From positions 164,985 to 228,984 of the forward strand of contig JBHIYN010000001.1 in NCBI GenBank assembly GCA_041984235.1: 64,000 nucleotides of DNA, written 5' to 3'. Shown one piece after another: positions 10,023 through 35,494 of this stretch; the stretch's first letter is position 1; each line of letters starts with the position of its first letter. This DNA comes from Gammaproteobacteria bacterium. GTDB lineage: Bacteria > Pseudomonadota > Gammaproteobacteria > Ga0077536. Under the pieces are notes generated by a model, which was given only the letters and a program-made list of their open reading frames with translations, had not been told where the DNA came from and ran no database searches. A program made the position numbers and the translations under genes.

Positions 10023-10166
10023 GATACCACCGGCGTGCCGGCGCGGGCGGCCGGCCGCAGCCGGCCGCGGGCGGTCGTGCGGGCAGTGGGCTGCATGCTA
10101 CGGTGGCACGCACCGTGGCCGCGCCGCGCCGGTGCACGGGGAGTGGTCAAAAAGAGGGGAGTCACC

Positions 10167-14464: not shown

Positions 14465-16903
14465 CTACAGCGTCAACCGGCGCAGTCGCAGTGCGTTGCC
14501 GATTACCGAGACCGAGCTCAGGCTCATGGCCGCGGCCGCGATCATCGGGCTCAGCACGATGCCGAAGAAGGGGTAGAGCACGCCGGCAGCGACGGGTACC
14601 CCGGCACTGTTGTAAGCGAAGGCGAAGAAGAGGTTCTGGCGGATGTTGGCAATCGTCGCCCGTGACAGGCGCCGCGCGCGCACGATGCCACGCAGGTCGC
14701 CGCGCACCAGGGTCACCGCGGCGCTCTCCATGGCGACATCGGTGCCGGTGCCCATCGCGATGCCGACGTCGGCGCGCGCCAGCGCCGGTGCGTCGTTGAT
14801 GCCGTCGCCGGCCATCGCCACCACCCGGCCTTCCCGCTGCAGCGCGCTGACGCGCTCGGCCTTGTCTTCCGGCAGGACACCGGCGTAGACCTCGTCGATA
14901 CCGAACTCGCGCGCTACCGCCGCGGCCGTGGTCGCATGATCGCCGGTCAGCATGACGATTTGCAGGCCCTCGGCACGCAACGCGGAGACCGCTTCGCGCG
15001 CGCCCTCGCGCAGCGGGTCGGCGACCGCGACCAGTCCCGCGACCTGCCCGTCCTCGGCCACGAACACGACCGTCTCGCCCGCTTCGCGCAGGGCCGCGGC
15101 GCGCGCCTCTAGGGCACCGGCGTCGAGACCGTCCGCGGCCATCAGCGCGGCATTGCCGAGCGCCACCGCGCGCCCTTCGATGCGGCCGCGCACGCCGAGA
15201 CCGGTGGCCGATTCGAACGCTTCGGGTGCGACCGTGGCAATGCCACGCCCGCTGGCGCCGCGCACGATCGCCGCGGCCAGCGGGTGCTCGCTGCCGCGCT
15301 CCAGCGAGGCGGCGATACGCAGCACGTGATCGGCCTCTCCGCCGTTCGCCGCCTCGACCGTGGTCAGGGCCGGCCGCCCCTCGGTCAGGGTGCCGGTCTT
15401 GTCGACCAGCAGGGTGTCGACGCTGCGCAGGACCTCGATCGCCTCGGCATCGCGAAACAGCACGCCGGCCGCCGCGCCCTTGCCGGTCGCGACCATGATC
15501 GACATGGGCGTGGCCAGCCCCAGCGCGCAGGGGCAGGCAATGATGAGTACCGCGACGCTGTTGACCAGTGCATGCGCCATCGCCGGCGGCGGACCGAACA
15601 GCGCCCACACGGCGAACGTCACGATGGCGATGCCGATCACCGTTGGCACGAACCAGCCGGCGACGACGTCGGCGAGACGCTGAATCGGCGCCCGGCTGCG
15701 CTGCGCTTCTGCGACCAGGGTAACGATGCGCGAGAGCAGGGTGTCGGCGCCGACCCGGCGCGCCTCCATGACCAGCCCGCCGCGGCCGTTGACGGTGGCA
15801 CCGGTGACGTCATCGCCGGGCCCTTTCTCGACCGGTACCGCCTCGCCCGTGATCATCGACTCGTCGACCGCACTGGTCCCATCCACGACGACACCGTCGA
15901 CCGGGATCTTCTCGCCCGGCCGCACGCGCAGCCGATCGCCGACCGCCACCGCGTCCAGTGCGACGTCGTGTTCGTCGCCCGCGGCGTCGATGCGGCGCGC
16001 GGTCGCCGGGGCCAGGTCCATCAGCTCGCGAATGGCGGTGCCGGTGTGGGCGCGCGCGCGCAGCTCGAGCACCTGGCCGACCAGGATCAGCGTAACGATG
16101 ACGGCGGCCGATTCGAAGTACACGGGGACGGCGCCATCCGCACCACGGAAGGCGGCCGGGAAGAGCTCCGGCGCCAGGGTGGCCACGGTGCTGTAGCCGA
16201 AAGCCACGCCGACCCCCAGACCGATCAGGGTGAACATGTTCGGGCTGCGATTCACGACCGAGCGCCAGGCACGCTGGTAGAACGGCCAGCCCGCCCACAG
16301 GCACACCGGCACCGCCAGCGCGAGCTCCAGCCAGGGGCGGACACCGTACCCGAGCGCGCTGGAAACCGGGTGTCCCGGCAGCATGTCGAACATCGTCAGC
16401 GCGACCAGCGGCACCGAGAGCAGGGCGGCGAGGACGAGGCGCCGGCTCATGTCGTCGAGCTCGGGATTGGCCTCGTCGACGGTGATCGTGGTCGGCTCCA
16501 GTGCCATGCCGCACAGCGGGCAGTCACCCGCTTCGTCGCGCACGATCTCGGGATGCATGGGGCAGGTCCACTGCGTGCGCCGCGCAGGCTGCGGCAGACC
16601 CTTGACCTCCAGCGCCATGCCGCACCTGGGGCAGTCGCCCGGACCGACCTGCTCGACCTCGGGGTCCATGGGGCAGGTGTAGACGGCGTCGGCCGGGCCG
16701 TCCTGCGCGGCTGCGCGCAGCGCGGGATCGAGGTAGCGTTGCGGGTCGGCCGCGAACTTCTCGCGGCAGCCGTTGCAGCAGAAGTGGTACACGGTGCCGG
16801 CGTGCTCGTGCCGGTGCGTGCTGTCGGTGCTGACCTGCATACCGCAGACCGGATCGCGGAGCTCCTCCGCGCCGGGCTGCAGCGGGCTCGTCGACTGGTT
16901 CAT
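14465..16903 (-). CDS. copA: copper-translocating P1B-type ATPase
   Basis: An N-terminal YHS-type domain ('DPVCGMQV...[12 protein letters not shown]') and two 'TCPM(D/H)PE...GDCP(R/L)CGMALE' metal-binding repeats are present. ATPase hallmarks include the transmembrane CPC motif '[13 protein letters not shown]', 'DKTGTLT' and '[10 protein letters not shown]'. The start is at 'MNQSTSPL' with a GAGGA SD. Confidence 0.9.
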
Positions 16904-16913
16904 GAGTGCGTCC

Positions 16914-17195
16914 TCAGCAGTTGCAGTTCTTGTCGAACACGCGCACGAGCTCGGCAATCTTCTCGGCGCGTTCGCCGGCGTCGCGGCTGTCGAAGGCGTC
17001 GGCCACACAGGTCTCGATGTGCGATGCGAGCAGCAGGCTGCCGGCCTTGCCGAGCGCCGCACGCGCCGCCGCGATCTGCAGCAGGATGTCGACGCAGTAT
17101 CGATCCTCGTCGACCATGCGCTGGATGCCGCCGACCTGTCCGGCTACGCGGCGCAGGCGGGTTTCGATCTGGCGTTTCACGTCGTTGCTGCGCAT
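16914..17195 (-). CDS. csoR: CsoR/RcnR-family metal-sensing transcriptional repressor
   Basis: A 93-aa protein with the DUF156 fold pattern, a conserved 'YCVD' motif and a C-terminal CNC. It is immediately upstream of copA on the same strand. Confidence 0.8.
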
Positions 17196-17232: not shown

Positions 17233-17378
17233 TATAGCCGAAGCCTGAGGGCCCCTGGCTACACTCGGCGCACGCGATCGCCGACAATGCGGCCTGCATG
17301 TCACCACTGGGCCGTCGGCGTTGCCGGCGCGTACCCGATTCGTCACCCGCCGCAACGCCATCAGCAGGAAATTTCACC

Positions 17379-18173
17379 GTGTTCAGCTACGTCGACGTCT
17401 CCATCCGTGAAAAGCTCGAGGCCGGCGGCCTGCTCGTGACCCTGAACCGGTCCGCCGAGGTCGTTGCCGGCGACGATCGCGAGGCGTTCATCTCGGTGCT
17501 GGGGCCGGTGCCGATCCCGCGCCTGATCGGTGACACCGAGGTCATGCTCGAGTGGTACCCGTTCGTGCGCAGGACCGAGCTCTCGGCCGTGCTGGACGCC
17601 GCCCGCCAGGTCGACGACGGGCACTCCGAGGCTTTCCGGCAGCTCCTGCACAGCTCGATGTCGGTCAACTCGGTCTTCGCCCTGCCCGGTTTCCGGGCTG
17701 CCGACCGGCCCCTGGTGCGCCTGCATTCGTGCTGCCTGACGGGCGACGTCTTCGGCTCGCGGCGCTGCGATTGCGGGCCGCAGCTCGAGGCTGCGTTCGA
17801 GCAGATCTTCGACGTCGGTGCCGGTGCGGTGGTCTACATGAGCGGCCACGAGGGGCGCGGCATCGGCCTGTGGGCGAAAGCGGTGACCTACCTGCTGCAG
17901 GATGCCGGCCACAACACTTACGAAGCGAACACCGCGCTCGGCCTGCCCGAGGACTCGCGCGACTTCAGCGATGCCGCGGTGGTGCTGCGCTACCTGCTCG
18001 CCGGCCGGGGCCTGCGCCTGCTGTCGAACAACCCGGACAAGCGCGCCCAGCTCGAAGCCCACGGCCAGCCGGTGCTGGAGGCGGTGTCACTGGTGGCCGG
18101 CCTGTGTGAGCACAACCTGCGCTACATCCGCGCCAAGCGCAGCAAGGGCCACCTGATCTCCGACGACGTCTGA
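17379..18173 (+). CDS. ribA: GTP cyclohydrolase II (RibA-like paralog)
   Basis: The zinc-binding motif 'CLTGDVFGSRRCDCGPQLE' and 'GHEGRGIGLWAKAVTYLLQDAGHNTYEAN' are present. A GTG start with an AGGAA SD is chosen; track ORF 17298..18173 is an alternative. It is divergent from csoR. Confidence 0.7.
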   Translation: MFSYVDVSIREKLEAGGLLVTLNRSAEVVAGDDREAFISVLGPVPIPRLIGDTEVMLEWYPFVRRTELSAVLDAARQVDDGHSEAFRQLLHSSMSVNSVFALPGFRAADRPLVRLHSCCLTGDVFGSRRCDCGPQLEAAFEQIFDVGAGAVVYMSGHEGRGIGLWAKAVTYLLQDAGHNTYEANTALGLPEDSRDFSDAAVVLRYLLAGRGLRLLSNNPDKRAQLEAHGQPVLEAVSLVAGLCEHNLRYIRAKRSKGHLISDDV

Positions 18174-20470: not shown

Positions 20471-21346
20471 TCAGAGCTTGCCGACGACGCTGTCGCCGAG
20501 CTGGTTGACGTAGTCCAGGATCGCGCTGCGTTCCACGGTGAGCGAGAACAGCTCGTCCGGCGCGGCGGGGAACAGCACGATCAGGCGGTCGACGCCGAGC
20601 TCCGCGTAGCGCCGCGCGGTGTCGAGATCGACGTTGCCCTGCGGGGTCACGCTGATCTCCAGGCGCCCCAGCCCGGCGGGACGCTCGATCTCTTGCGCGG
20701 CCGCCTCCAGCCCGTCGAGACAGGCACGGGTCTGCTCGAGGTCGAGACCGAAGCCGTACCAGCCCTGGCCGTGGCTGACGCTGCGCCGGAACGCGCCGGG
20801 CACGTGGCCGCCGAACACGGCCGGCGGTCCCGGCTGCTGCAGCGGCCGCGGAAAGGCCTTCACGCCCTCGAAGGCGACGAAGCGTCCGTCGTAGGCCGGC
20901 GCGTCTTGGGACCAGATCGCACGCATCGCTTCCAGGTACTCGAGCGTGCGCTCAGCCTTGTGCGCGAAGGGTATGCCGAGCGCGTCGAACTCCGCTTTGA
21001 GGTAGCCGATGCCGATGCCGAACTCCAGGCGGCCGCCACAGAGTACGTCCAGGCTGGCCATTTCCTTGGCCAGCACCAGTGGGTTGCGCTGCGGCAGGAT
21101 GATGATGCCGGTGCCCAGGCGGATGCTGCGCGTCTGCCCGGCGAGCCAGGCAAAACAGATGTTGGGGTCGAGCATCGGGTAGTCGGCGGGCAGCGGCGAG
21201 GGCGGGCGCTGCGGCTCGGGCAGCACGACATGCTCACCAGCCCACAGCGACTCGAATCCCGCCGCCTCGGCTGCCTGTGCGACCTCGATCGAGGCCGCCG
21301 GATCGGCCAGCGGCCCCATGTTGATTCCAAACAGTCCGAGCTTCAT
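20471..21346 (-). CDS. LLM-class F420/flavin-dependent oxidoreductase
   Basis: 'MKLGLFGINMGPLADPAASIEVAQAAEAAGFESLWAGEHVV' is typical. The start is the internal Met of track ORF 20471..21769, with a 'ggggaggggg' SD. Confidence 0.75.
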   Translation of the reverse strand: MKLGLFGINMGPLADPAASIEVAQAAEAAGFESLWAGEHVVLPEPQRPPSPLPADYPMLDPNICFAWLAGQTRSIRLGTGIIILPQRNPLVLAKEMASLDVLCGGRLEFGIGIGYLKAEFDALGIPFAHKAERTLEYLEAMRAIWSQDAPAYDGRFVAFEGVKAFPRPLQQPGPPAVFGGHVPGAFRRSVSHGQGWYGFGLDLEQTRACLDGLEAAAQEIERPAGLGRLEISVTPQGNVDLDTARRYAELGVDRLIVLFPAAPDELFSLTVERSAILDYVNQLGDSVVGKL

Positions 21347-21441: not shown

Positions 21442-22080
21442 TCAGCGCCGCCGCCGGCGCCGTGGTTCGCTGCCCGCGACGTTGACCCTGACCCCGCCAC
21501 TGCCGCCACGCAGGCGTGGCAGGCAGAGCGCCACGGCGCAGGACGCGGCGAACCACAGCAGCGCGAGTGCGGCGAGGAAGGCGCGTTGTTTGAATTCCAC
21601 CGTGCGCCGCATCCGCTCGTAGTCCACCAGTCGCCCCGGGTGCGCGTCGAGCTGCACCACTTCGAAGCGCGGCCGCTCGGCGCCCGCGCCGCGCGGCAGG
21701 CGATGATCCTCGTAGCGGGCACGCGACCACAGCGGACTGAACAGCAGGGGTGGCTCGCGCCGCGCCCACACGCGAACGGTCTCGCCGGGCGCGATGACGC
21801 CGCTGCCGAGCGGCACGTGATCGCCGTTGACGACGAACTCCACCGGGCTGCCGGCCAGGCGCAGGCGCAGCTCCTCGTGGCCGAGGAAGCGCAGGTTCCG
21901 GCTGTTGCTGAGCGCGTTGCGGTGTTGCGCCACCGCGACCACCTTGCGCGTCAGTGGCGTGAGCTGGTCGAGGGCGGGGAAGCGCGGTGCCGCGAACAGG
22001 GCCGCGATGCCGAGGAAGACCACGGCGAGCGCGGCGGCGATGGCGAGCTCCCGGCGCCAGCTGCTGCGCCCTGCGTTCAT
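21442..22080 (-). CDS. hypothetical membrane protein (N- and C-terminal transmembrane helices)
   Basis: The last gene of the Mo-hydroxylase operon, starting 9 nt after the MoaD-like stop. Family not recognised. Confidence 0.5.
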   Translation of the reverse strand: MNAGRSSWRRELAIAAALAVVFLGIAALFAAPRFPALDQLTPLTRKVVAVAQHRNALSNSRNLRFLGHEELRLRLAGSPVEFVVNGDHVPLGSGVIAPGETVRVWARREPPLLFSPLWSRARYEDHRLPRGAGAERPRFEVVQLDAHPGRLVDYERMRRTVEFKQRAFLAALALLWFAASCAVALCLPRLRGGSGGVRVNVAGSEPRRRRRR

Positions 22081-22089
22081 CGCGGCGGC

Positions 22090-22338
22090 TCAGCCACCCT
22101 CGATGGCGGGCAGGAAATAGACTTCGCTGTCGCTGCCGACCGGCTGCACGAACCAGTCCTGGAAGATCTCGCCGTCGATGGCCACGGCGAGGCCGCGGCG
22201 CAGGCGCTCGCCGATACCGGGGAAGCGCGCGTCCAGCGCGCGCACCAGCTCGCGCACGTCACCGGCCTCGACCTCGTGTTCGGTCGAGCCGCCGGCGAAC
22301 GTGCGCGCCACTTCCAGGGGCAGGACGACTCGCGCCAT
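22090..22338 (-). CDS. MoaD/ThiS-family ubiquitin-like sulfur-carrier protein
   Basis: An 82-aa protein ending in the diagnostic C-terminal Gly-Gly ('...YFLPAIEGG' then stop). It is immediately downstream of the Mo-hydroxylase large subunit. Confidence 0.7.
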   Translation of the reverse strand: MARVVLPLEVARTFAGGSTEHEVEAGDVRELVRALDARFPGIGERLRRGLAVAIDGEIFQDWFVQPVGSDSEVYFLPAIEGG

Positions 22339-22353
22339 GGCGCGCCGCTGCGT

Positions 22354-24642
22354 TTACTTGCCGTCGAGCGCCTTGAGCAGCTTGGGCGGCGAGATCGGCA
22401 GGTCCGCCAGGCGCACGCCGGTGGCGCGTGACACGGCGTTGGCGACCGCCGCCAGCGGCGGAACGATGGGCACCTCGCCGACGCCGCGCACGCCATAGGG
22501 ATGGCCCGGGTTGGGCACCTCGACCAGCACGGTGTCGATCATCGGCAGGTCGGAAGCGACCGGCACGCGATAGTCGAGGAAGCCGGTGTTCTGCAGCCGC
22601 CCTTCGGCGTCGTAGACGTACTCCTCGTTCAGCGCCCAGCCGATGCCCTGCACGGCGCCGCCCTGCAACTGGCCTTCGACGTAGCTCGGGTGGATGGCCT
22701 TGCCGACGTCCTGGATCGCGGTGTAGCGCAGGATGGTGACGCGGCCGGTCTCCGGATCGACCTCGACGTCGCAGATGTGCGTGCCGAAGCCGGGACCGGC
22801 GCCGTGGGCGTTGATGTTGGCCTTGCCGGAAATCGCACCGCCGGTCTTGTCCGCCATCGCCGCGATGTCGGCGATCGAGAGCGGCTTGTGCTGCTCGGTC
22901 TCAATGCAGCGCGCCTCGCCGTTCTCCCATTCGACCTGGTCGAGGTCGACGTCCCAGATCTTGGCGGCGCGCCGGCGCATGTCGTTGACCGCGTCCTGCG
23001 CGGCCTCGATCACGGCCTTGCCGGTGGCGAAGGTGACGCGCGAGCCGCCGGTCAGCATGGAGAAGGGCACGGACTCGGTGTCCGCCACCAGCGGCTTGAT
23101 GCGGGCGACGTCGATACCGAGCACCTCGGCCGCCATCAGCGCCATGGAGGCACGCGAGCCGCCGATGTCCGGGTTGCCGGTGGCCACGATCACGGTGCCG
23201 TCCTCGTTGACCATGACCTCGGCGCTGGAGGTGCCGCCGATGTTGAACCAGAAACCCGAAGCGATGCCGCGACCCTGGTTCGGCCCCAGCGGCGCGCTCC
23301 AGTGCGGGTGGTCCTTCGCCGCTTCCAGCGTTTCCTTGTACCCGATGCGGCCGAACTTGACGCCGTAGGGCGCCTGCGTGCCTTCCACCGCGGCGTTCTT
23401 CATGCGCAGCTCCAGCGGGTCCATGCCGAGCTGCTGGGCGAGCTCGTCGAGCGCCGACTCGACCGCGAACGCGGCGACCGGCGCGCCGGGTGCACGGTAG
23501 GCGGCGGCCTTGGGCCGGTTGACGACCACGTCCCAGCCGACGCAGGAGACGTCGGTAAGGTTGTACGGCGCGAAGCCGGTCATGCAGCCAAGCGCGACCG
23601 GCGAGCCGGCGAAGGCGCCGGCCTCGTACTCCATCTCGAGCTCGCCCGCGACCAGGGTGCCGTCCTTCTTCGCGCCGATCCTGGCGCGTGCATGGCCGCC
23701 CGAGGTCGGCCCGGTAGCGCGCATGACCTCGTCGCGGGTCATTACCATCTTCACCGGGCGCCCCGCCTGCTTGGCGAGCATGACCGCCAACGGCTCCAGG
23801 TAAACGACGGTCTTGCCGCCGAAGCCGCCGCCGATCTCGGCCGGGATGACCTTGATCCGCGCGGTCTCCATGCCGCACATCTTGGCGACGTAGGCGCGCA
23901 CCATGAACTGGCCCTGGCTGGAGCACCAGATGGTGACCTGGCCGTCGGCCGCGATCGAGGCGACGCAGGCGTGCGGCTCGATGTAGCCCTGGTGCACGGT
24001 CTGGGTGGTGAAGTCGCGCTCGACGATGACGTCGGCCTTGGCGAAGGCCTTGTCCGGGTCGCCGAGGCGGAACTCGGCGCGGTTGGCCACGTTGGAAGCC
24101 TTTTTCGGTTTCGGCTCCACGCCGCCGGTGAACATGTCCTTGTGCAGCACGGGCGCGTTCTTCTTCATCGCCTCGGCCGCGGTCATGACCGGCTTGAGCA
24201 CTTCGTACTCGACCTCGATCAGTTCGGCGGCGCGCTCCGCGATCTGCGGCGAGGTGGCGGCGACGGCCGCGACCGCGTGCCCGTCGTAGAGCACCTTGTC
24301 ACGCGCGATGGTGTTGCGCGACATGTCGTAGAAGCTGACCACCACTTCGCCGACCGCCTTGTCGGACGGGTCGAGCTGCGGCAGGTCCTGCCCGGTGATG
24401 ACGGCTTTCACGCCCTTGAGGCGCAGGGCCTTGTCGATGTTGATCTTCTTGATCTTCGCGTGCGCATGCGGGCTGCGCACGACCTTGCCCCAGATCATGC
24501 CGTTGACTTCGAAATCGGCACCGAAGTTGGCGCGGCCGGTGACCTTGTCGGCGCCGTCCGGTCGCACCGGGCGGGTACCGATGTGGCGGAACTCGCGGCC
24601 GCTGTAATCGATGATCTTCTGGATGTCTTCTTCGTTACCCAT
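22354..24642 (-). CDS. xanthine dehydrogenase / aldehyde oxidase family molybdopterin-binding large subunit (CoxL-like)
   Basis: A 762-aa protein with a typical a/b-hammerhead N-terminus ('VRPDGADKVTGRANFGADF'). The active-site-loop region reads 'AAYRAPGAP', not the 'VAYRCSFR' of form I CO dehydrogenase. Confidence 0.85.
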   Translation of the reverse strand: MGNEEDIQKIIDYSGREFRHIGTRPVRPDGADKVTGRANFGADFEVNGMIWGKVVRSPHAHAKIKKINIDKALRLKGVKAVITGQDLPQLDPSDKAVGEVVVSFYDMSRNTIARDKVLYDGHAVAAVAATSPQIAERAAELIEVEYEVLKPVMTAAEAMKKNAPVLHKDMFTGGVEPKPKKASNVANRAEFRLGDPDKAFAKADVIVERDFTTQTVHQGYIEPHACVASIAADGQVTIWCSSQGQFMVRAYVAKMCGMETARIKVIPAEIGGGFGGKTVVYLEPLAVMLAKQAGRPVKMVMTRDEVMRATGPTSGGHARARIGAKKDGTLVAGELEMEYEAGAFAGSPVALGCMTGFAPYNLTDVSCVGWDVVVNRPKAAAYRAPGAPVAAFAVESALDELAQQLGMDPLELRMKNAAVEGTQAPYGVKFGRIGYKETLEAAKDHPHWSAPLGPNQGRGIASGFWFNIGGTSSAEVMVNEDGTVIVATGNPDIGGSRASMALMAAEVLGIDVARIKPLVADTESVPFSMLTGGSRVTFATGKAVIEAAQDAVNDMRRRAAKIWDVDLDQVEWENGEARCIETEQHKPLSIADIAAMADKTGGAISGKANINAHGAGPGFGTHICDVEVDPETGRVTILRYTAIQDVGKAIHPSYVEGQLQGGAVQGIGWALNEEYVYDAEGRLQNTGFLDYRVPVASDLPMIDTVLVEVPNPGHPYGVRGVGEVPIVPPLAAVANAVSRATGVRLADLPISPPKLLKALDGK

Positions 24643-24645
24643 CGC

Positions 24646-25122
24646 TCATGCTCCTCGCATTTCAGCCGCGGCGTTCATGACCGCGCGAATGATCTTGTCG
24701 TAGCCGGTGCAGCGGCACAGGTTGCCGGCGAGCCAGTAGCGCGCCTCGGTCTCGGTCGGGTCCGGGTTCGCCTCGAGCAGCGCCTTGGCGGCGACGATGA
24801 AGCCCGGCGTGCAGATACCGCACTGCAGGCCGGCTTCCTCGAGGAAGTGACGCTGCACCGGGTGCAGCTCCTCGCCCTCGGCGACGCCTTCGATGGTCTC
24901 GATGCTGGCGCCCTCGGCCTCGGCACCGAGCACCAGGCAGGAACAGACCAGGCGTCCGTTCATCATGATGCTGCACGCGCCGCAGTCGCCCGAAGCGCAG
25001 CCCTCCTTGCTGCCGGTCAGGCCGAGTTCGTCACGCAGGCAGTCGAGCAGGGTCTGCTCGGTGTCGCACAGGAACTCGGCCGGGTCGCCGTTGATGGTCG
25101 TGGTGACGTGATGTTTGGCCAT
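24646..25122 (-). CDS. (2Fe-2S)-binding small subunit of a Mo hydroxylase (CoxS-like)
   Basis: Two [2Fe-2S] cysteine clusters are present: 'CASGDCGACSIMMNGRLVCSC' and 'CGICTPG...CRCTGY'. Confidence 0.9.
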   Translation of the reverse strand: MAKHHVTTTINGDPAEFLCDTEQTLLDCLRDELGLTGSKEGCASGDCGACSIMMNGRLVCSCLVLGAEAEGASIETIEGVAEGEELHPVQRHFLEEAGLQCGICTPGFIVAAKALLEANPDPTETEARYWLAGNLCRCTGYDKIIRAVMNAAAEMRGA

Positions 25123-25137
25123 GTCTCGGGATGCTCC

Positions 25138-26007
25138 TTATGCGCCGCGCGCGCGTTCGAGTGCAATCAGCGCCGCGCGGCGCGCCAGCACGCCGGCGAC
25201 GCGGGTGCGGTACTCGGCAGTGCCGCGCTTGTCGTCGATCGGCTTGCACGCGGCGCTGGCCGCGGCGGCCAGGGCGGCCAGCGCGTCGTCGTCCAGCGTG
25301 GTGCCGATGATGGCCTTCGCCGCTTCCTTGACCAGCAGCGGGCGCGGCGCGACCGCGCCCAGGGCGACGCGTGCGTCGGACACCACGCCCTTGGCGTCCA
25401 GGGTCAGGCTGACCGCGGCGCCGACCACGGCGATGTCCATCTCGGTGCGCGGGATGAAGCGCAGGTAGGCATCGCCCGAGCGCCGCGGGCGCTTGGGCAG
25501 GAAGAAGCTGACCACGAACTCGCCTTTCTTCAGCGAGGTCTTGCCCGGGCCGGTGACGATGTCCTCGACCTTGGCGGTGCGCGTGCCCTTGGCGCCGGCG
25601 ATCTTGCAGGTCGCGCCGGCCGCGATCAGGCCCGGTACGCTGTCGGCGGCGGGTGAGCCATTGCACAGGTTGCCGCCGAGCGAGGCGCGGCCCTGGATCT
25701 GGGTCGAGCCGATCAGCTCGAGTCCCTCGACCACGCCGGGCCAGGCCTTGCGCACCGCCTTGTTGGCGCCGAGCTCGGCACCCGACACGGCAGCGCCGAT
25801 ACGGAAGCCGTTCTTCTCGCGTTTGACCTCGCGCAGCTCGGGTATGTGCTTGATGTCGACGATGAGGCCGGGGCGGGTACGCCCGGCGCGCAATTGCACG
25901 AGGAGGTCGGTCCCTCCCGCGAGCACCTTGGCCTTGCCCTTGGCGCCGGACAGCGTGCGTACGGCTTCACGCACGGTCTGCGGCGCAGCGAATTGAATTT
26001 CTGCCAC
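25138..26007 (-). CDS. FAD-binding medium subunit of a Mo hydroxylase (CoxM-like)
   Basis: FAD-binding PCMH-type motifs 'VLAGGTDLLVQL' and 'ASLGGNLCNGSPAADS' are present. Confidence 0.85.
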   Translation of the reverse strand: MAEIQFAAPQTVREAVRTLSGAKGKAKVLAGGTDLLVQLRAGRTRPGLIVDIKHIPELREVKREKNGFRIGAAVSGAELGANKAVRKAWPGVVEGLELIGSTQIQGRASLGGNLCNGSPAADSVPGLIAAGATCKIAGAKGTRTAKVEDIVTGPGKTSLKKGEFVVSFFLPKRPRRSGDAYLRFIPRTEMDIAVVGAAVSLTLDAKGVVSDARVALGAVAPRPLLVKEAAKAIIGTTLDDDALAALAAAASAACKPIDDKRGTAEYRTRVAGVLARRAALIALERARGA

Positions 26008-26114: not shown

Positions 26115-28442
26115 TCAGCCCGGCAGGCCGAGCACGCCCTTGGCGATGATGTTGCGCTGGATCTCGTTCGAGCCGCCGTAGATCGTCGCCGGCCGTGCGT
26201 TGTAGAACTGGCTGAGGACGTCCACCGTCTCGTGACCGAAGGCGAGCGCGCCGGGCGTCGCGCCGTCGGCGGCGGCCGCCTCGACCATCAGCTCGGACAG
26301 CCGCGCGAAGGTCTCGGTGCCCCAGATCTTGAGCAGCGACACGTCCGGACCCAGCGTGTCGCCGCGGCGCACGATGTCGGCGAACACCTGGTAGGTCGAC
26401 TCCAGGTCCAGCACGTCGAGCTTGAGCCGCACGAGGCGATCGCGGAAGGCGCCGTCGTCGAGCATCCCGGCGCCGGCGGCGAGCGCTTCGAGGCGCATCA
26501 GGGCGTACTGCGACTGCTTGGGGCTGCCGATGAAGATACGCTCGAAACCGAGCAGGGCCTTGGCGATGGTCCAGCCCTGGTTGATCTCGCCGACCAGGCA
26601 ATCCGCCGGCACGCGCACGTCGTCGAGGAACACCTCGCAGAACTCCTCGTGTCCGGCGATGTTGCGAATCGGGCGTATGGTCACCCCCGGCTGGTCGAAG
26701 TCGATGAGGAAGAAGCTGATGCCGGCCTGCGGCTTGCCTTCCCTGGAAGTGCGCGCGAGGCAGAACATGTGGGTCGCGTCCTGCGCCAGCGTGGTCCAGG
26801 TCTTCTGCCCGTTGATCACGAACTCGTCGCCATCGGCAACGGCCTCGGTCTTGAGGCTGGCGAGGTCGGAGCCGGCATTCGGTTCCGAGTAGCCCTGGCA
26901 CCACACGGCGTCGCCGGACAGGATCTGCGGCAGGTATCTCGCGCGCTGCTCGGCGGTACCGTGGCGTATGAGCAGCGGGCCGACCATCTGGATACCCATG
27001 TCGGGTGCGCGGCCGACGCCCCAGCGCTCCTGCTCCTCGATGAAGATGAGCAGCTTCGACGGCGACAGGCCCATGCCGCCATGCTCCGCCGGCCACGCCG
27101 GCGCCACCCAGCCCTTCGCCGAGAGCTTCAGGTACCACGGCTTGATGTCGGACCAGCGCAGGCGTTCCGAGGGATAGCGCAGCTCGGGCGGGTACTCGGA
27201 CTCGAAGAAGCGGCGCACCAGCATGCGAAAGGTCTCGTCGTCGATGCTGTCCCACTCGCCGTTGGCGGGCTCCGCGGTAGTGGTGAGCGTAGCCGGCGCG
27301 CGCTCGCCGCTCTCCGCGCCGAGCAGGCTGGCCAGGCGGGTCGCGTGGAAGCTCGCGTTGCCGTGGCGTGCGGCCAGCACCAGCGCGCGGTTGAGATACA
27401 GGCCGACGTCGCACTCGTCGGTGTAACCGATGCCGCCGTGCAGCTGCACGGCCTGGCGGGTCAGCAGCAGCGCCGTCTCGCTGGCGCGGTACTTGGCGCG
27501 GCTCGCGGCCCGCGCGCGCGCCTCGGCCGAGACCGCGGCGTCGTAGTCGGCGAGTGCCTCGTCGAGCACTGCGCCGGCGATGGTCTTGTGGATGAAGAGG
27601 TCGACCGCGCGGTGCTGCAGGGCCTGGAAGCTGCCGATCGGGCGGCCGAACTGCTCGCGGGTCTTGAGGTAGTCCAGGGTGATGTCGAAGATGCGCTCGC
27701 TCAGGCCGACCAGGTAGGCGGCGCTGCCGAGGCGTGCCAGCGCGCGTGCGTCGGCCAGCGCGTCGGCCGCGGCGTCGCCGCGCGCGAGCAGGGCGCCGGC
27801 GTCGACCGCGGCCTGCTCCAGGATCAGCGTGGCGCTGCTGGTGCCGTCACTCTGGGTGCGGGATTCGACGCGCACGCGCGCGTGGTCGGTGGCGACCAGG
27901 AACAGGGCGGGAGCCGTGTCGAGCACGGCTTCGACCACGACGTGGTCCAGCGCCTCGGCCAGGGCCACGCCGCGCACTCGCCCGTCGAGCAGGTAGCCGT
28001 CGCGCTGCGGCGTTGCCAGCAGGGGCGGAATGCCGCCGGCGAACTCACCGGCCTCGGCCAGCGCGGCGCCGATCAGGGTCTCGCCGTGAAAGAGGTCACG
28101 CAGCAGCACGCCGTCGCGGTCCAGCGCCGCGAGCAGGCCGCAGGCGGCGACACCGCATTCGAGCATCGGCTCGGGCGCTACCACGCGGCCCAGCTCGCGG
28201 CACACCGCGCCCGCCGCCTGGGCGCCGAGATCGAGCCCGCCGGCGGTCTCCGGTGCGAGGATGCCGGCCCAGCCGAGCTCGCACATCTCGCGCCACGCAC
28301 CGCGGTCGAACGGCGGCGCCGCGCCGCGCAGTGCACGCAGGCGTTCCACGCCGAGACTGCGTGCGCAGAAGTCGGCGGCGCTGTCACGCAGCATGTCGAT
28401 GGTCTCGAGGTCCACCGCGGGGCGGCGCAGGGCTTCGCTCAT
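26115..28442 (-). CDS. fused two-domain acyl-CoA dehydrogenase (776 aa)
   Basis: Two consecutive ACAD-like units are present. The second has canonical 'QGYSEPNAGSDLASL' and 'TIYGGSNEIQRNIIAK'. The start is at 'MSEALRRPAV' with a GGAGAC SD. The remainder of track ORF 26115..29822 is antisense to the hydratase gene. Confidence 0.75.
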   Translation of the reverse strand: MSEALRRPAVDLETIDMLRDSAADFCARSLGVERLRALRGAAPPFDRGAWREMCELGWAGILAPETAGGLDLGAQAAGAVCRELGRVVAPEPMLECGVAACGLLAALDRDGVLLRDLFHGETLIGAALAEAGEFAGGIPPLLATPQRDGYLLDGRVRGVALAEALDHVVVEAVLDTAPALFLVATDHARVRVESRTQSDGTSSATLILEQAAVDAGALLARGDAAADALADARALARLGSAAYLVGLSERIFDITLDYLKTREQFGRPIGSFQALQHRAVDLFIHKTIAGAVLDEALADYDAAVSAEARARAASRAKYRASETALLLTRQAVQLHGGIGYTDECDVGLYLNRALVLAARHGNASFHATRLASLLGAESGERAPATLTTTAEPANGEWDSIDDETFRMLVRRFFESEYPPELRYPSERLRWSDIKPWYLKLSAKGWVAPAWPAEHGGMGLSPSKLLIFIEEQERWGVGRAPDMGIQMVGPLLIRHGTAEQRARYLPQILSGDAVWCQGYSEPNAGSDLASLKTEAVADGDEFVINGQKTWTTLAQDATHMFCLARTSREGKPQAGISFFLIDFDQPGVTIRPIRNIAGHEEFCEVFLDDVRVPADCLVGEINQGWTIAKALLGFERIFIGSPKQSQYALMRLEALAAGAGMLDDGAFRDRLVRLKLDVLDLESTYQVFADIVRRGDTLGPDVSLLKIWGTETFARLSELMVEAAAADGATPGALAFGHETVDVLSQFYNARPATIYGGSNEIQRNIIAKGVLGLPG

Positions 28443-29381: not shown

Positions 29382-29909
29382 ATGAGTATCGAATTCGTCG
29401 ACCCACGTGGCGAGACACGGCGCGCCGCGCAAGCCTATGAACATGTCCTCGACGTCACCGTGCCGGCGACCATCGGCCTGCTGGCCAACGGCTTTCCCGA
29501 CTCGGTCGCGTTCCTGGACGCGGTCGAGGTCGCTCTGGGCGAGGCGCTGCCGCAGGCGAGCTTCCGCCGCTACGCCAAGCCGGGCGCCTCGGCGCCGGCC
29601 GACAGCGCGCTGGTCGCCCGCATCGCGGCCGAGTGCGATGCGCTGGTGACCGCCTACGGGCACTGAGGCAGCTGCACATCCGGCACCGTGCGTGACGGCA
29701 TTGCACTGGCCCGCGAGGGGCGCCCGGCGGTGGCCTTCGTGACCACCAAGTTCGAGCCGCAGGGCGACTTCGTCGCCCGCGCCGAGGGCATGCCCGACGT
29801 GCCTCGCGTGATCGTGCCGCACCCGGTGGCCGGCATCGGTGCTGCCGCCATGGCCGCGCTGGCGCGCGACATCGCCGTCACCGTGGTCGAACGGCTGCGC
29901 GCCGGATGA
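29382..29909 (+). CDS. UGSC-motif selenoprotein; TGA at 29664..29666 read as selenocysteine
   Basis: Track ORFs 29382..29666 and 29688..29909 are in the same frame, separated only by one TGA. Read-through gives '...AYGH-U-GSC-TSGTVRDGIALAREG...'. There is a GGAGAA SD before 29382. The gene is co-oriented with selA and selB downstream, and tRNA-Sec is present in the window. Confidence 0.75.
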
Positions 29910-30973
29910 GCGCGCTGCTCAGCGCGGCCGATGCCGATGCCGCACTCGAGCGACTGCACGCCCTGCGCTGCACGGACGGCCTGCCGGTGGTCATTCCGAC
30001 CCCCGAGCGCGTCTCGCGGCTGGTGCTCGCGAGCGGGCTGGACGCCGACATCGAGCTCGGCGTGATGGGGCCGGGTTATGGCGTCGCCACCGTGGAGAAG
30101 GTTGCCGCCTGCGCGGTCATGGCCGGCTGCCTGCCCGACCACATGCCGGTGGTCGCGGCCGCCGTGCGCGCGGTGTGCCGGCCCGAGTTCGATCTCACCG
30201 AGATGCAGTGCACCACGCATGCCATCGCACCGCTGGTCGTGGTCAACGGTCCGGCGCGCGCGGCCGGCGGCTTCGCCTCCGGCTTCGGGCTGATGGGGCC
30301 CGGCCACCGCGCCAACGCCAGCGTCGGCCGCGCCCTGCGCCTGGCCATGATCAACATCGGCGGCGCGCGCCCGGGCGAATCCGACATGGCCATCCACGGC
30401 TCGCCGGCCAAGTTCTCGCTGTGCTTTGCCGAGGACGAGGCGGCCTCGCCCTTCGCGCCGCTGCACACGACCTTCGGCTACGCGCCCGGCGACAGCGCGG
30501 TCATGGTGCTCGGCGTCGAGGGCCCGCACTCGGTGCTGTTCAGCGGCGATGCCGGCGATAGCGCGTCGGCCGAGGCCCTGCTCGACACCCTGGCCGCGGT
30601 GATCGCCAATCGCGGCAGCAACAACTCCTACCTCGGCGGCCGCGCCGCGGTCGCGCTGGTGCTCAATCCCGAGCATGCCGCGATCCTGGCCGGGGCCGGT
30701 CATGGCCGCGAGTCCGTGCAGCAGGAGCTCGCCGCGCGCGCGGTGACCCCGCGCGAAATCCTGCAGCGCCTCAATCCGAAGATGCTGCAGGGCGAGGAAG
30801 CCCTGATCCCGGCAGTGCGCGATCCGGCCCGGGTGCACCTGATGGTGGCCGGCGCGCCCGGCCTGTACTCGGTCGTGATGCCGTCGTGGTGTGCCGGGCC
30901 ACACGGCAACGTCGCGGTGCACGCGGCGGTCGAGCTGGACCCGTACTGCGAATTACCCACGGCCTCCCGCTGA
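29906..30973 (+). CDS. conserved hypothetical protein (355 aa), translationally coupled to the UGSC selenoprotein
   Basis: A long intact ORF whose start overlaps the upstream stop by 4 nt (ATGA). Family not recognised from sequence; it is not SelD-like. Confidence 0.55.
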   Translation: MSALLSAADADAALERLHALRCTDGLPVVIPTPERVSRLVLASGLDADIELGVMGPGYGVATVEKVAACAVMAGCLPDHMPVVAAAVRAVCRPEFDLTEMQCTTHAIAPLVVVNGPARAAGGFASGFGLMGPGHRANASVGRALRLAMINIGGARPGESDMAIHGSPAKFSLCFAEDEAASPFAPLHTTFGYAPGDSAVMVLGVEGPHSVLFSGDAGDSASAEALLDTLAAVIANRGSNNSYLGGRAAVALVLNPEHAAILAGAGHGRESVQQELAARAVTPREILQRLNPKMLQGEEALIPAVRDPARVHLMVAGAPGLYSVVMPSWCAGPHGNVAVHAAVELDPYCELPTASR

Positions 30974-31040
30974 GCGCCGCGCCGCCGCGATCTGCTAGGC
31001 TGTGACGCTGCCGGGTGCAACGGCCCGGGGGGAGAATGTC

Positions 31041-32129
31041 ATGTCCGATCTGTATGCCGACGCCGCGGTCACGGTACGCGAGGATCTCGCCGCCGCGCAC
31101 GCGCGCAGCCTGGCCAGTTTTAGCGCGCCGGGAACCTGGTTCGACGGCGCGACCCGCGCCGGCCTGGCCGGCGAGGCGCGGCAGGCCCGCGCAGAGGCCG
31201 GCCTGCAGCCGGGCACGCCGCCGACGGAGGGGGGCGGCGCGGTGCCCGCGGCCGCCGCGCGCGTGGTCCGGCGGATTGCCGCCGACCCGACCGACCTCGA
31301 TCGCAGCCTGTTCGACGATGCCTGCGCCGAGGGTCTGAGCGAGGAAGAGTACGTCGAATGCGTCGGCATTGCCGCGCGCATCAGTAACCTCGACATGTTC
31401 GCGCGCGGCCTCGGCGTCGCACCGCGGCCGCTGCCGCCGGTCAGCGCCGGCGAGCCGAGCCGACGGCGTCCGGCCGCGGCGGTCGCGGAGGGCGCCTGGG
31501 TGGCGACGATCCCCAACGGTGAGGCCGGCGGCGCCGAGGGTGCCGCGCTCTACGGCGGGCAGTGGGCGGCCAACATCCTGCGCGCGCTCAGCCTGGTGCC
31601 CGCCGAAGCCGCGGACCTGATTGCCTTGGGCGACGTGCAGTACGTCTCGGTGGCCAACTTCATGGACTTCGGCTACTCGCACGACCCGGCCATCTCGCGG
31701 CAGCAGGTCGAACTGGTGGCGGCGCGCATCTCCGCGCTCAACGCCTGCTTCTACTGAACCTCCTGGCATGTGCAGCTGCTCCGTGCGAGCGGCCAGTCGG
31801 GACAGAAGACTTACGAACTGAAAGGGGTTACCGATCGTGCGCTCGCTATCGGCGTGGACGACGAGGACGTCTTGCTGGCCTTCGCCGACGCGGTCTTCGG
31901 CGGGCCGCAGGCTGCGCTCGACGCGGCGCGCAGCGCGCTGCGCCATCGCCTGGGTGACGGCGGCCTGGTCGAGGCCGCGATCACCGCGGCGAATTTCAGC
32001 CTGGTCGATCGCGTCGCCAACAGCATCGGTATTCCGCTCGATGGCATGGCCATCGAGCAGACGGCCGATTTTCGCGAACCGCTCGGCATCAACCGCTTCC
32101 CTTCGGCGCGCAATACGCTCGGCGGCTGA
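31041..32129 (+). CDS. AhpD/carboxymuconolactone-decarboxylase-like selenoprotein (CxxUxxxH); TGA at 31755..31757 read as selenocysteine
   Basis: Track ORFs 31002..31757 and 31770..32129 share a frame and are separated by one TGA. Read-through gives 'NA-C-F-Y-U-T-S-W-H', matching the AhpD core CxxCxxxH motif with Sec in place of the second Cys. A 'ggggggagaa' SD precedes the ATG at 31041. selA lies immediately downstream. Confidence 0.75.
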
Positions 32130-32159
32130 ACCGCCGCCGGGCACACGGACGGCGGCGCC

Positions 32160-33584
32160 GTGAGCGACGGCGCCGAGGCCAACGCGGCGCTGCGGGCGGT
32201 GCCGTCGATCGACGAGTTGCTGCGCGGTGCCGATGCCGCCCGCCTGGTCGATGCCTGGGGCCGCGAAGCGGTCGTCGCGGCCTTGCGCGAAGCGGCCGAC
32301 GCGGCGCGCGCGGCACTCGCCGGGGGCGCTGCGGCGGCGCGTGCGCAGGCGTCGGCGGAGGCCCTGGTCGCGGACGCGGCCGCCCGCCTCGCGGCGCTGA
32401 TGGCGCCGGCGCTGAAGCCGGTGTTCAACCTCACCGGCACGGTGCTGCACACCAATCTCGGACGCGCGCCGCTGCCGGCCGAGGCGATCGCGGCGATGAG
32501 CGCGGCGGCCGGTGCCAGCAACCTCGAGTACGACCTCTCGACGGGACGCCGCGGCGATCGCGATGCGCTGGTCGAGGACTGGATCTGCCGCCTCACCGGG
32601 GCCGAGGCGGCGACCGTGGTCAACAACAACGCCGCCGCCGTGCTGCTGCTGCTGAACACGCTCGCGCGGCGCCGCGAGGTGCCCGTGTCGCGCGGCGAGC
32701 TGGTCGAGATCGGCGGCGCCTTCCGTATTCCCGACGTCATGGCGCGGGCCGGCAGCAAGCTGGTCGAGGTCGGTACGACCAACCGTACCCATGCGCGTGA
32801 TTTCGAGGACGCGCTCGGTGCGCGCAGCGCGCTGCTCATGAAGGTGCATACCAGTAACTACGTGGTCGAGGGTTTCACCGCCGCGGTCGCCGAGCCCGAG
32901 CTGGCGCGCATCGCGCATGCAGCCGGTGTGCCGTTCGTGGTCGATCTCGGCAGTGGCACGCTGACCGACCTGTCGCGCTTCGGCCTGCCGCGCGAGCAGA
33001 CCGTCGCCGAGACCCTGGCCAATGGCGCCGACCTGGTGACCTTCAGCGGTGACAAGCTGCTCGGCGGCCCGCAGTGCGGCATCATCGCGGGGCGCGCCGA
33101 TCTCGTGCGCCGCATCAAGAAGAACCCGATGAAGCGCGCCCTGCGCGTGGACAAGATCACGCTCGCCGCGCTGGGCGCGGTGCTGCGCCTGTACGGCGAT
33201 CCCGCACGCCTGCCCGAACGCCTGCCGGCGCTGCGCCTGCTGACCCGCGACGAGGCCGACATCCGCGCCGCTGCCGAGCGGCTGCTGCAGCCGCTGCGTG
33301 CGGCACTGGGCGCTGCCGCGACGGTCGACGTCGTCGCCTGTCGCAGCCAGATCGGCAGCGGCGCCCTGCCGGTCGACCTGTTGCCGAGCGCCGCGCTGCG
33401 CATCACGCCGCCGGGCCGGCGCGGGCGGGCACCGGAGCGGCTGGCCGCACGCCTGCGCGCGCTGCCGCTGCCGGTCATCGGTCGCATCGCGGACGGCGCC
33501 GTGCTGCTCGACCTGCGCTGCCTGGACGACGAGGCCGGATTCGTCGACCAGCTGGCGCTGCTGGGCGAGGGTGAAGCGCCGTGA
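32160..33584 (+). CDS. selA: L-seryl-tRNA(Sec) selenium transferase
   Basis: The PLP-lysine region '[20 protein letters not shown]', '[15 protein letters not shown]' and the N-terminal 'VPSIDELLR' are present. The start is GTG. Confidence 0.9.
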
Positions 33585-35494
33585 TCGTCGCCACCGCCGG
33601 CCACGTCGATCATGGCAAGACGCTGCTGGTGCGGGCGCTCACCGGTGTGGACACCGACCGCCTGCCGGAGGAGAAGCAGCGCGGACTGACCATAGAGCTC
33701 GGCTTCGCCTACCACGATCTCGGCGACGGCGAGATCACCGGCTTCATCGACGTGCCCGGCCACGAGCGCTTCATTCGTACCATGATCGCCGGTGCCAGCG
33801 GCATCGACGTGGTGCTGTTCATCGTCGCCGCGGACGACGGCCCGATGCCGCAGACCGCGGAGCATCTCGCGATCCTCGACCTGCTGGGGGTGCAGCGCGG
33901 GGTGGTCGCATTGACCAAGGTCGACCGGGTCGACGACGCGCGCCTGCAGGCGGTTACCGTCGAGTGCCGCCGCCTGTTCGAACCGACGCCGCTGGCGATG
34001 GCTCCGATCGTACCCGTTTCGGCGCTCGAAGGCCGCGGCATCGATCTGCTGCGCGAGGTGCTGCTGAAGCTCTCCGCCGAGGTGCCGCCGCGTGTGGTCG
34101 CAGGCAATTTCCGCCTCGCCATCGATCGCAGCTTCCTGCTCAAGGGCGCCGGACGGGTGGTGACCGGCACCGTCTTCTCCGGGCAGGTCGGCGTCGGCGA
34201 GGCGGTGTGTCACGTCCCGGGCGGCGAGAGCGTGCGGGTGCGCGGCATCCACGCCCAGAACCACGAGGCGGAGTCGGCCGGCGCCGGCCTGCGCACCGCG
34301 CTCAACCTGGCCGGCAGCGGGCTGCGCGACGGCGATCTGCATCGCGGTGACTGGATCGTCGCTGACGGCGCCGCGTTCTCCACCCGCCGGCTCGACGCCA
34401 TGCTGCGCGTGCTGCCGGGGGAGAGCCGGGCGCTGCGCAATCGCACCCCGGTGCACGTGCACGTCGGCGCCGCCGACGTCACCGGCCGCGTCGTGACCTT
34501 CGACGGCAAGGCCATAGAGCCCGGCGCGGAGGCGCCGGTGCAGTTGCTGCTCGACCGCGAGCTGCACGCGGTCCACGGCGACCGCATCGTGCTGCGCGAC
34601 CAGTCGGCGCGGCGTACCCTGGGCGGCGGCACGGTCATCGATCCGGTGCCCGACGTCCGCGGCCGCTCGCGCAGCGAGCGCGTACGTTACCGTGAAGCGA
34701 TGTCGTGTGACGACCCGGCCGCGGCCCTGGACGCGGCCCTGGCGGCGCTCCCCGACGGCATCGAGCTCGATCGCTTCAGTCGCTGCTGGAATCTTACCGC
34801 CGCGGAGGCCGAGGCACTGTTCGCGCGCAGCGCGATGGTGCGCGTCGACCGCGGCGACGTGCGGCTCGGTTTCGAGCCGGCGCGCTGGCAGGCCCTGCAG
34901 GACATGCTGCCGCCGGCGGTGGCGGCGGTTCATGCCGAGGCGCCCGACCGCCCCGGTGCCAGCGAGGCCGAGATCAACCGCAAGCTGCCCGAGCGCCTGC
35001 GTCCCGCACTGCTCGCGCTGCTCGTCGAACAGCTCGTCGCGGCCGGTACCCTGGAACGCAACGGCGCCGTGGTGCGCGTGCCCGGTCACGCTGTGCAGCG
35101 CTCGCCGGCCGACGAGAAGCTGTGGCGGCGGGTCGGGCCGATCCTCGAAAAGGCCGCGTTGAAGGCGCCGGTGGTGCATGACCTGCACGAGGCGCTGCAC
35201 ATCGACCTCAAGCTGCTGGAGGGTTTCCTCGGGCGCTCTGCGCAGCAGGGTTACCTGGTGCGCGTGAGCGCCAAGCGTTACTTCCTGCCGGACAGCATGC
35301 GCACTTTCGAGACCATCGTGCTGGAGCTTGCGCGCACCCAGCCGGATGGCGTATTCACCGTTGCCGATTTTCGTAACCGCGCCGGCATCGGCCGCAATGC
35401 GGTGGTCGAGATCCTGGAATACTTCGACCGCGTCGGCCTGACCCGGCGCCACGGCCAGGTGCGCCGGGTCGTCGGCACGCCCACCCATCTCTGA
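33581..35494 (+). CDS. selB: selenocysteine-specific translation elongation factor
   Basis: The GTPase G1 motif '[16 protein letters not shown]', 'DVPGHERFI' and the long C-terminal winged-helix extension are present. It overlaps selA by 4 nt (GTGA). Confidence 0.9.

Follow-up and report, generated by a model that had tools for sequence, protein, structure and literature searches.

Finishing and insertion of the molybdenum (Mo) cofactor in xanthine oxidase-family enzymes is known for few systems, all of which pair an XdhC-type chaperone with a cysteine desulfurase. Such chaperones are usually required for this family and cofactor maturation is system-specific (PMC2997495). In xdhABC, paoABCD and coxMSL-DEFG the genes for XdhC, PaoD and CoxF stand last, after the structural genes, with a presumed system-specific maturation role; for paoABCD, the final place of PaoD is stated in PMC3909100. 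Small MoaD-like proteins are tied to a different class of pterin enzyme: MoaD paralogues linked to tungsten aldehyde oxidoreductases (AORs) have been predicted to act in cofactor maturation (PMC1779556), a maturation role is presumed for AorD and AorE of Aromatoleum aromaticum, which do not occur in the purified enzyme (PMC6365974), and experiments show that GAPOR requires TK2118 (UblB) of Thermococcus kodakarensis for its tungsten cofactor (PMC11323500). Here we describe, in a 64-kb stretch of the gammaproteobacterial contig JBHIYN010000001.1 (the window), an operon for a three-subunit Mo hydroxylase that is followed by the gene for an 82-amino-acid (aa) protein ending in Gly-Gly (GG), and we find that the real unit is four genes, encoding the flavin adenine dinucleotide (FAD), [2Fe-2S] and Mo subunits and the small beta-grasp protein.

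The locus shares features with both groups of described systems. As with the AOR-linked MoaD paralogues, a small GG-terminated gene is kept beside the genes of one pterin enzyme and apart from the general cofactor operon, and the cluster possibly travels as a mobile unit. The partner there is a tungsten bis-pterin AOR, whereas here it is a three-subunit Mo/FAD/2Fe-2S enzyme of the xanthine oxidase family; AOR clusters often carry MoeB, MoaE or MoaA (PMC1779556), which the module described here never does, and the 82-aa protein is nearer to CysO than to MoaD. With the XdhC and PaoD genes it has the final position in common, but those genes encode Mo cofactor-binding chaperones of about 35 kDa that have no homology to the 82-aa beta-grasp protein. 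Enzyme-dedicated MoaD-type carriers are already known from tungsten AORs; what is new, within the open-access literature, is a candidate carrier of this kind with a medium-small-large (M-S-L) operon of the xanthine oxidase family, and we found no MoaD-type gene linked to an operon of this kind in that literature, including Iyer 2006 and Makarova 2010. The M-S-L enzyme MhyADH is described as having an unexplained 750-bp gap after its L gene.

A four-gene module conserved across phyla

Open reading frames (ORFs) and their translations were taken from a program-made list for the window, which places five co-directional ORFs on the minus strand (Table 1) with intergenic spacings of 15, 3, 15 and 9 nucleotides (nt) in the order FAD subunit, [2Fe-2S] subunit, Mo subunit, 82-aa protein and a 212-aa ORF. 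An original prediction, made from these letters and translations alone, had described canonical FAD, [2Fe-2S] and Mo subunits in coxMSL order, followed by a ubiquitin-like protein ending in Gly-Gly, with no XdhC-type chaperone in the window. The Pfam domains of all three subunits bear out the first of these statements, and the Pfam ThiS match, a beta-grasp structural model and the GG read in translation agree with the second. As to the third, we found no XdhC/CoxI, ThiF/MoeB, MoaE or MobA/MocA-type domain among about 55 window ORFs that carried Pfam labels or were scanned, a set that leaves out a few small or end-of-window ORFs. The search of these ORFs for a MoeB/ThiF-like activating enzyme, which the prediction had proposed, thus also came back empty, and no CoxD-G-type accessory genes were found among them.

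A genome scan with the large subunit yielded 80 orthologous loci (58-87% identity) from Gamma-, Alpha- and Betaproteobacteria, one Acidobacteriota metagenome-assembled genome (MAG) and one Acidimicrobiales MAG. Using a profile of the small protein, we found that 69 of the 80 have its gene directly 3' of the Mo subunit, usually starting 8-73 nt past the large-subunit match, an adjacency far beyond chance. Upstream of the Mo subunit, the FAD subunit gene is kept at most of the 80 loci. The test was repeated in the reverse direction with distant members of the small-protein family (P0117, P0014, P0183, P0261, P0246 and P0265), and in all six, those with checkable DNA, the gene comes immediately after that of an orthologous Mo subunit. 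Such synteny in both directions is strong support for a functional link between carrier and enzyme. Clustering of all ORFs from the 80 loci returned no fifth gene conserved beyond subclades; the clade-specific neighbours were an enoyl-CoA hydratase, a fused acyl-CoA dehydrogenase, SelA/SelB, a short-chain dehydrogenase/reductase (SDR), a P450 and, judged by sequence, a GTP-cyclohydrolase-I-like gene.

The small gene was missing from 11 loci: two at a contig edge, four that also have no adjacent M and S genes, three M-S-L loci of Reyranellaceae, L078 and L080. L080 likewise has no adjacent M and S genes, and the tree analysis counts it among the four such loci. A neighbour-joining tree of large subunits has the carrier gene on its deepest branches and the loci without it in at least four separate places, a distribution that points to an ancestral module from which the carrier has occasionally been lost. 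Outside the four genes, the neighbourhoods differ between loci and at some include transposases, so the module appears to travel as a unit.

Several observations accompany the ortholog set. Transposase genes of insertion-sequence type flank the module in L084 and L085, and about 4 kb downstream in L084 (13932-18579) and L086 (14213-18860) there is a tandem pair of additional large-subunit genes (769 and 775 aa) that have no M and S genes of their own. The module is present on pSymA of Sinorhizobium meliloti 1021 (NC_003037.1, about 1,151,643-1,155,489) and in other cultured rhizobia, and S. meliloti 1021 is genetically tractable, so direct testing is possible. On pK101b of Sinorhizobium sp. 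K101, RefSeq labels the four genes 'xanthine dehydrogenase family protein subunit M', '(2Fe-2S)-binding protein', '...molybdopterin-binding subunit' and 'MoaD/ThiS family protein'.

The small protein as a separate family of GG-terminated carriers

The C-terminus of the 82-aa protein reads ...PAIEGG, and its Pfam ThiS score of 36.4 bits exceeds the cut-off of 22.5 (E 7.8e-9). Loss of the GG terminus in orthologues had been named as grounds for abandoning the carrier idea; we found the terminus kept, with a stop codon directly after GG in 66 of the 69 carrier-bearing loci and a GG end in 115/120 database homologues, 115/120 also being exactly 82 aa long. The family is large and nearly uniform: in a library of 1.84 billion proteins we counted at least 344 clusters (50% identity) at E <= 1e-10 from at least four phyla, nearly all of them standalone proteins of 80-85 aa. 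The alignment has invariant R29, D55, F75, P77 and G82 and a conserved pattern, AVAIDGEIFQD...SEVYFLPAIEGG; R29, D55 and Q60 are invariant surface residues of the family beyond what MoaD function explains.

The AlphaFold2 model shows a beta-grasp fold with confidence (predicted local distance difference test score (pLDDT) 89.4), its last two residues forming a disordered, floppy tail. The top Foldseek match to this model was Mycobacterium tuberculosis CysO (3DWG_C; E 1e-6, template-modelling (TM) score 0.86), followed by Amycolatopsis orientalis CysO (4N6E_B) and then by mycobacterial and Escherichia coli MoaD (6JBZ, 1FM0), SAMP1 and Urm1, with a probability of 1.00 for these classes. The best profile matches were likewise to CysO (E 0.006 and 0.026), remote by sequence. 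CysO of M. tuberculosis (Rv1335) and A. orientalis shares with the 82-aa protein both the beta-grasp fold and a tail of the form ...P-A-(V/I)-x-G-G. It differs in length (about 90 aa), in its sequence identity of only 20-27% and in its partners, CysM or BexX plus MoeZ in cysteine or thiosugar synthesis, none of which is linked here. On these profile and model grounds, the 82-aa protein is best placed as a separate family within the GG-terminated sulfur-carrier class and not as ordinary MoaD; in annotation, proteins of this family should not be read as housekeeping MoaD. No MoaE adjoins the carrier gene or is fused to it in the window or the Pfam-labelled loci.

A minority of homologues run 7-40 residues past GG, among them those at L025 (~6454-6729) and L076 (~10287-10553), P0127, P0136, P0154 and others, and about nine library hits have low-complexity tails past GG. 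The homologues with 7-40 extra residues may be precursors for cleavage, or lost stops or assembly errors. The only long hit in the library, P0230, joins an SDR to the carrier with an internal Met; it resembles a lost stop codon more than a genuine domain fusion, and fusions gave no clue to function.

The hydroxylase belongs to an uncharacterised clade

All three Pfam domains of the large subunit, the a/b-hammerhead and two Mo cofactor-binding domains (PF02738 and PF20256), score far above their cut-offs, and the family motifs GGGFGGK and GVGE are found at residues 271-277 and 720-723; of the Mo-pterin (MCD) cofactor with a catalytically required Mo=S ligand that marks the family, these two motifs are what the sequence shows. 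The small subunit has the Cys motifs C-x4-C-x2-C-x11-C and C-x2-C-xn-C-x-C in translation. The active-site loop AAYRAPGAP is identical in 70 orthologous large-subunit ORFs from the 80 loci.

We compared the enzyme with characterised relatives by NCBIfam model scores and PDB chains in place of a phylogeny. Clustering of the large subunit with a characterised enzyme had been posed as a test of the original prediction, and by these scores we found no such enzyme: the large subunit falls below every curated NCBIfam equivalog cut-off. Its best score is with XdhA (NF043082, 478 against a cut-off of 780), and the other xanthine dehydrogenase models are also missed (NF007426, 453/916; TIGR03196, 347/784; TIGR02965, 244/850), so that a xanthine dehydrogenase of XdhA, PucD or XdhB type was rejected on all four equivalog models. 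The glyceraldehyde dehydrogenase alpha model gave 437 against 790.

The nearest solved large subunit is the alpha chain of 4-hydroxybenzoyl-CoA reductase (1RM6_A, E 5.7e-97), followed by CoxL and 6-hydroxypseudooxynicotine dehydrogenase, and the closest solved chains to the FAD subunit are the CO dehydrogenase flavoproteins CutM and CoxM. The nearest relative by large subunit, HcrABC of Thauera aromatica, differs in its beta subunit: HcrB has 324 aa with an extra segment, while the FAD subunit here has the length of CoxM, lacks that segment and aligns to 1RM6_B only over residues 7-117. We therefore set aside 4-hydroxybenzoyl-CoA reductase, for which the equivalog scores were low for both alpha (TIGR03194, 452.8 against 994.55) and beta (TIGR03195, 119.9 against 404.55) and the extended beta-subunit segment is missing. 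Form-I CO dehydrogenase was likewise ruled out, as the original prediction had argued from the loop, which lacks the Cu-binding Cys of VAYRCSFR; TIGR02416 scored 322.3 against a cut-off of 991.15, and no coxDEFG-type genes were found among the scanned window ORFs. By these comparisons we class the enzyme as a CoxMSL-ordered hydroxylase or dehydrogenase of the xanthine oxidase family, from an uncharacterised clade. Acyl-CoA dehydrogenase and enoyl-CoA hydratase neighbours in the gammaproteobacterial subclade hint at a CoA-thioester substrate, but this context is not common to other clades.

A candidate dedicated sulfur carrier for the Mo cofactor

We favour, at a probability of roughly 55%, a reading in which the 82-aa protein is a dedicated thiocarboxylate sulfur carrier for maturing the Mo cofactor of the co-encoded enzyme. 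Gene content, fold, GG conservation and two-way linkage with the enzyme clade are its observed basis. In the proposed scheme, a MoeB/MoeZ-type activating enzyme (E1) encoded elsewhere in the genome would adenylate the C-terminal glycine, the carrier C-terminus would be turned into a thiocarboxylate, and the sulfur of this group would be used in maturation of the cofactor, the carrier filling the last-gene slot that XdhC or PaoD chaperones hold in other operons of the family. The activation, the thiocarboxylate and the acceptor are our inference; the best structural matches of the small protein (CysO, MoaD and SAMP1) are all thiocarboxylate carriers. A single E1 for several carriers has a parallel in mycobacteria, where one MoeZR serves both MoaD and CysO (PMC3227635). 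No XdhC-family gene was found among the scanned window ORFs or in the Pfam-labelled related loci, and none forms a conserved cluster across the 80 loci.

Several results weigh against a dedicated sulfur carrier. The 82-aa protein matches no NCBIfam family at E <= 0.01, in a library that we take to hold moaD equivalog models, and has no significant sequence match to PDB chains, solved MoaD included. At no locus does the module have a linked E1, MoaE or cysteine desulfurase, so no sulfur-relay step is visible. The carrier gene is missing from the three Reyranellaceae M-S-L loci and L078, where it would be either dispensable or supplied in trans; in place of a substitute, only glycosyltransferase-like or SDR genes were found 3' of the Mo subunit at these loci. 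Many operons of this enzyme family have no linked chaperone, which is encoded elsewhere instead (PMC5131310). The literature, finally, offers no role that we could find for a thiocarboxylate carrier in insertion of the Mo=S ligand, and such a carrier goes unmentioned in a 2026 review of the sulfido ligand.

Two acceptors for the sulfur come into question, with similar and fairly low probabilities. The dithiolene sulfurs of molybdopterin, made with host MoaE, would accord with how all characterised MoaD-type proteins with a linked pterin enzyme act; against this, no locus links a MoaE, a MoaD is already present in the host, and the family has drifted away from MoaD in the direction of CysO. The terminal Mo=S ligand, only slightly less probable, would suit a gene in the XdhC/PaoD slot of an enzyme that usually needs a system-specific sulfuration or insertion factor and has none linked, but it is without precedent, and the chaperones of the family are often simply encoded elsewhere. 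In its most specific form, which we regard as rather unlikely, the carrier thiocarboxylate would itself be the direct Mo=S donor, at maturation or in desulfo repair, independently of XdhC and NifS and within a mobile module.

The absence of linked sulfur-relay partners would also fit a small protein that does no sulfur chemistry and serves as a fourth subunit, as a factor for assembly or docking, or as a ubiquitin-like covalent modifier of the enzyme or another protein, with GG used for binding or conjugation. The tight spacing behind the Mo subunit, usually below 30 nt, suggests co-translation in matched amounts, the archaeal relatives SAMP1 and the T. kodakarensis Ubls also form protein conjugates, and the family has its own invariant surface residues in R29, D55 and Q60. 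We nevertheless consider this explanation unlikely: the stop codon directly follows GG in nearly all carrier-bearing loci, whereas to our knowledge subunit-only beta-grasp proteins such as TmoB keep no free GG terminus. No JAB-type protease or E2/E3-like gene is linked, and the analogues AorD and AorE are not part of the purified enzyme.

The proximity to CysO raises the question of whether the carrier gives sulfur to a small molecule, as CysO, QbsE and PdtH do, with hydroxylase and carrier acting in one pathway. Its nearest relatives by profile and fold feed metabolites, and Iyer et al. list several ThiS/MoaD pathways of this sort (PMC1779556). Those systems, however, link an E1-rhodanese, a JAB protease, a pyridoxal-phosphate enzyme or an adenylating ligase (PMC1779556), none of which is conserved here, and the neighbourhoods outside the four genes share nothing across clades, so that no common pathway is visible; we judge this improbable.

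It is more improbable still that the protein is an ordinary MoaD, or a redundant copy raising molybdopterin supply, which lies beside a molybdoenzyme by chance and has no enzyme-specific role. The tail pattern (Pro at -6, a hydrophobic residue at -4, GG) and the fold (TM 0.74 to E. coli 1FM0_D) would be compatible with MoaD, and sources label homologues as molybdopterin synthase sulfur carrier subunit. An ordinary MoaD is hard to reconcile with the lack of any NCBIfam match, with a length held near 82 aa across phyla and with a family bound in both directions to one enzyme clade, and MoaE, the usual neighbour of MoaD (PMC1779556), is linked at none of the loci.

Close to refuted is a joint role in which the carrier and the 212-aa membrane protein together replace the accessory genes and possibly bring selenium to the Mo centre: the 212-aa ORF begins 9 nt after the carrier stop with a coding-like third-position GC content (GC3), and SelA and SelB lie within 10 kb in a synteny kept in the gammaproteobacterial subclade, but the ORF has no homologue, close relatives end at the carrier before a convergent gene, the selenium genes serve two adjacent selenocysteine-containing proteins with in-frame TGA, and SelD, XdhC-like and MobA-related markers were not found in the window.

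A carrier dedicated to the Mo cofactor would have consequences beyond this locus. Here a widespread enzyme clade brings along its own sulfur-carrier-type protein of ubiquitin fold, with no chaperone linked. Should this protein supply the cofactor, the module would be a second, portable solution to maturation and would extend the pairing of a MoaD paralogue with a single enzyme from tungsten AORs to molybdenum hydroxylases.

The 212-aa ORF and the selenium genes

Two components of the original prediction fared less well. It had placed a 212-aa two-transmembrane protein in the operon and had proposed selenium, given the locus, as a possible cargo. An ORF with two hydrophobic segments does exist, with stretches at about residues 9-37 and 166-190 and a GC3 of 0.87, but it is not a conserved part of the system. 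A tblastn search matched it in 0/80 orthologous loci, the only homologue among 5.8 billion proteins was the identical sequence, and in a relative with a 70%-identical carrier, the gene next after the carrier is a convergent one. In a single-sequence AlphaFold2 model (mean pLDDT 50.5), helices span residues 4-30 and 154-191, with residues 33-151 below 50. We therefore rejected the ORF as a module partner, for want of homologues and tblastn matches; it appears to be a species-specific orphan, of uncertain reality as a gene, outside the module.

SelA, SelB and two selenoprotein genes (Table 1) make up the selenium context. Gene callers had split both selenoprotein genes, the UGSC gene into 94-aa and 73-aa ORFs and the CFYUT gene into 238-aa and 119-aa products. 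The trait markers of selenium-dependent Mo hydroxylases are SelD, SirA-like, HP1/HP2, MobA-related and XdhC (PMC2432076), and none was found among the scanned window ORFs. Selenium delivery to the Mo centre was rejected, the genes nearby being those for selenocysteine decoding and two selenoproteins, and the suggestion of selenium as cargo falls with it.

A block made up of SelA-SelB, a 351-355-aa protein without a family, the UGSC selenoprotein and an enoyl-CoA hydratase (window 29382-35494) runs divergently to the acyl-CoA dehydrogenase gene and the M-S-L-carrier module. This SelA-SelB block is syntenic in the gammaproteobacterial subclade (L087 and L088, 1-6200), with SelA at 11/80 and SelB at 6/80 loci.

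Features of the locus and its surroundings

The fused acyl-CoA dehydrogenase gene upstream of the module keeps its synteny within the gammaproteobacterial subclade, and that of the LLM-class oxidoreductase gene downstream is not kept in other loci. A promoter scan placed the single sigma-70-like site of the region at 28504-28476, just upstream of the acyl-CoA dehydrogenase gene, and a terminator scan of the region gave counts at chance level; together these scans weakly support a single transcription unit.

Table 1. Genes and sites of the module and its neighbours, in window coordinates
Feature	Position	Strand	Evidence
FAD-binding medium subunit, CoxM-type, 289 aa	25138..26007	-	PF00941 (E 1.5e-43) + PF03450
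Small subunit, two [2Fe-2S] sites, 158 aa	24646..25122	-	PF01799 (E 1.5e-30) + PF00111
Molybdopterin-binding large subunit, 762 aa	22354..24642	-	PF01315 + PF02738 + PF20256
Active-site loop AAYRAPGAP, Mo-subunit residues 380-388	23479..23505	-	read in translation
ThiS/MoaD/CysO-fold carrier-type protein, 82 aa, Gly-Gly end	22090..22338	-	Pfam ThiS PF02597
ORF with two hydrophobic segments, 212 aa	21442..22080	-	no Pfam or NCBIfam match
Fused double acyl-CoA dehydrogenase, 775 aa (context, next gene upstream)	26115..28442	-	Pfam labels
LLM-class F420-type oxidoreductase, 291 aa (context, downstream)	20471..21346	-	PF00296; TIGR03619 220.6 bits vs cut-off 166.9
UGSC-family selenoprotein	29382-29909	+	TGA at 29664-29666 reads H-U-G-S-C; both halves match NF041046 + PF24696
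AhpD-related CFYUT selenoprotein	31002-32129	+	TGA at 31755-31757 reads C-F-Y-U-T; NF041238 222.8 bits vs cut-off 175

Near the module, the window holds a GTP cyclohydrolase II gene (RibA-type) with a long N-terminal extension (17298-18173, plus strand). A GTP-cyclohydrolase-I-like gene, so called by sequence only, lies about 1.3 kb downstream of the carrier in six gammaproteobacterial loci (for example L003 11842-12573, minus strand). Further along the minus strand of the window, a CsoR-type metal-sensing repressor gene (PF02583) is followed by that for a copper-type P-type ATPase of 812 aa that carries YHS and HMBD domains (14465-17195), and an ORF of about 1518 aa (5541-10097) is coding-like by its GC3 of 0.90 and has no Pfam match at E <= 1e-4. 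At the other end, positions 38000-60948 are densely set with catabolic genes, including those for two Rieske ring-hydroxylating alpha subunits, two P450s, two AMP-ligases, amidohydrolases, SDRs and a flavin monooxygenase, together with TetR and AraC regulators, a content suggestive of an island for the breakdown of hydrophobic or aromatic compounds.

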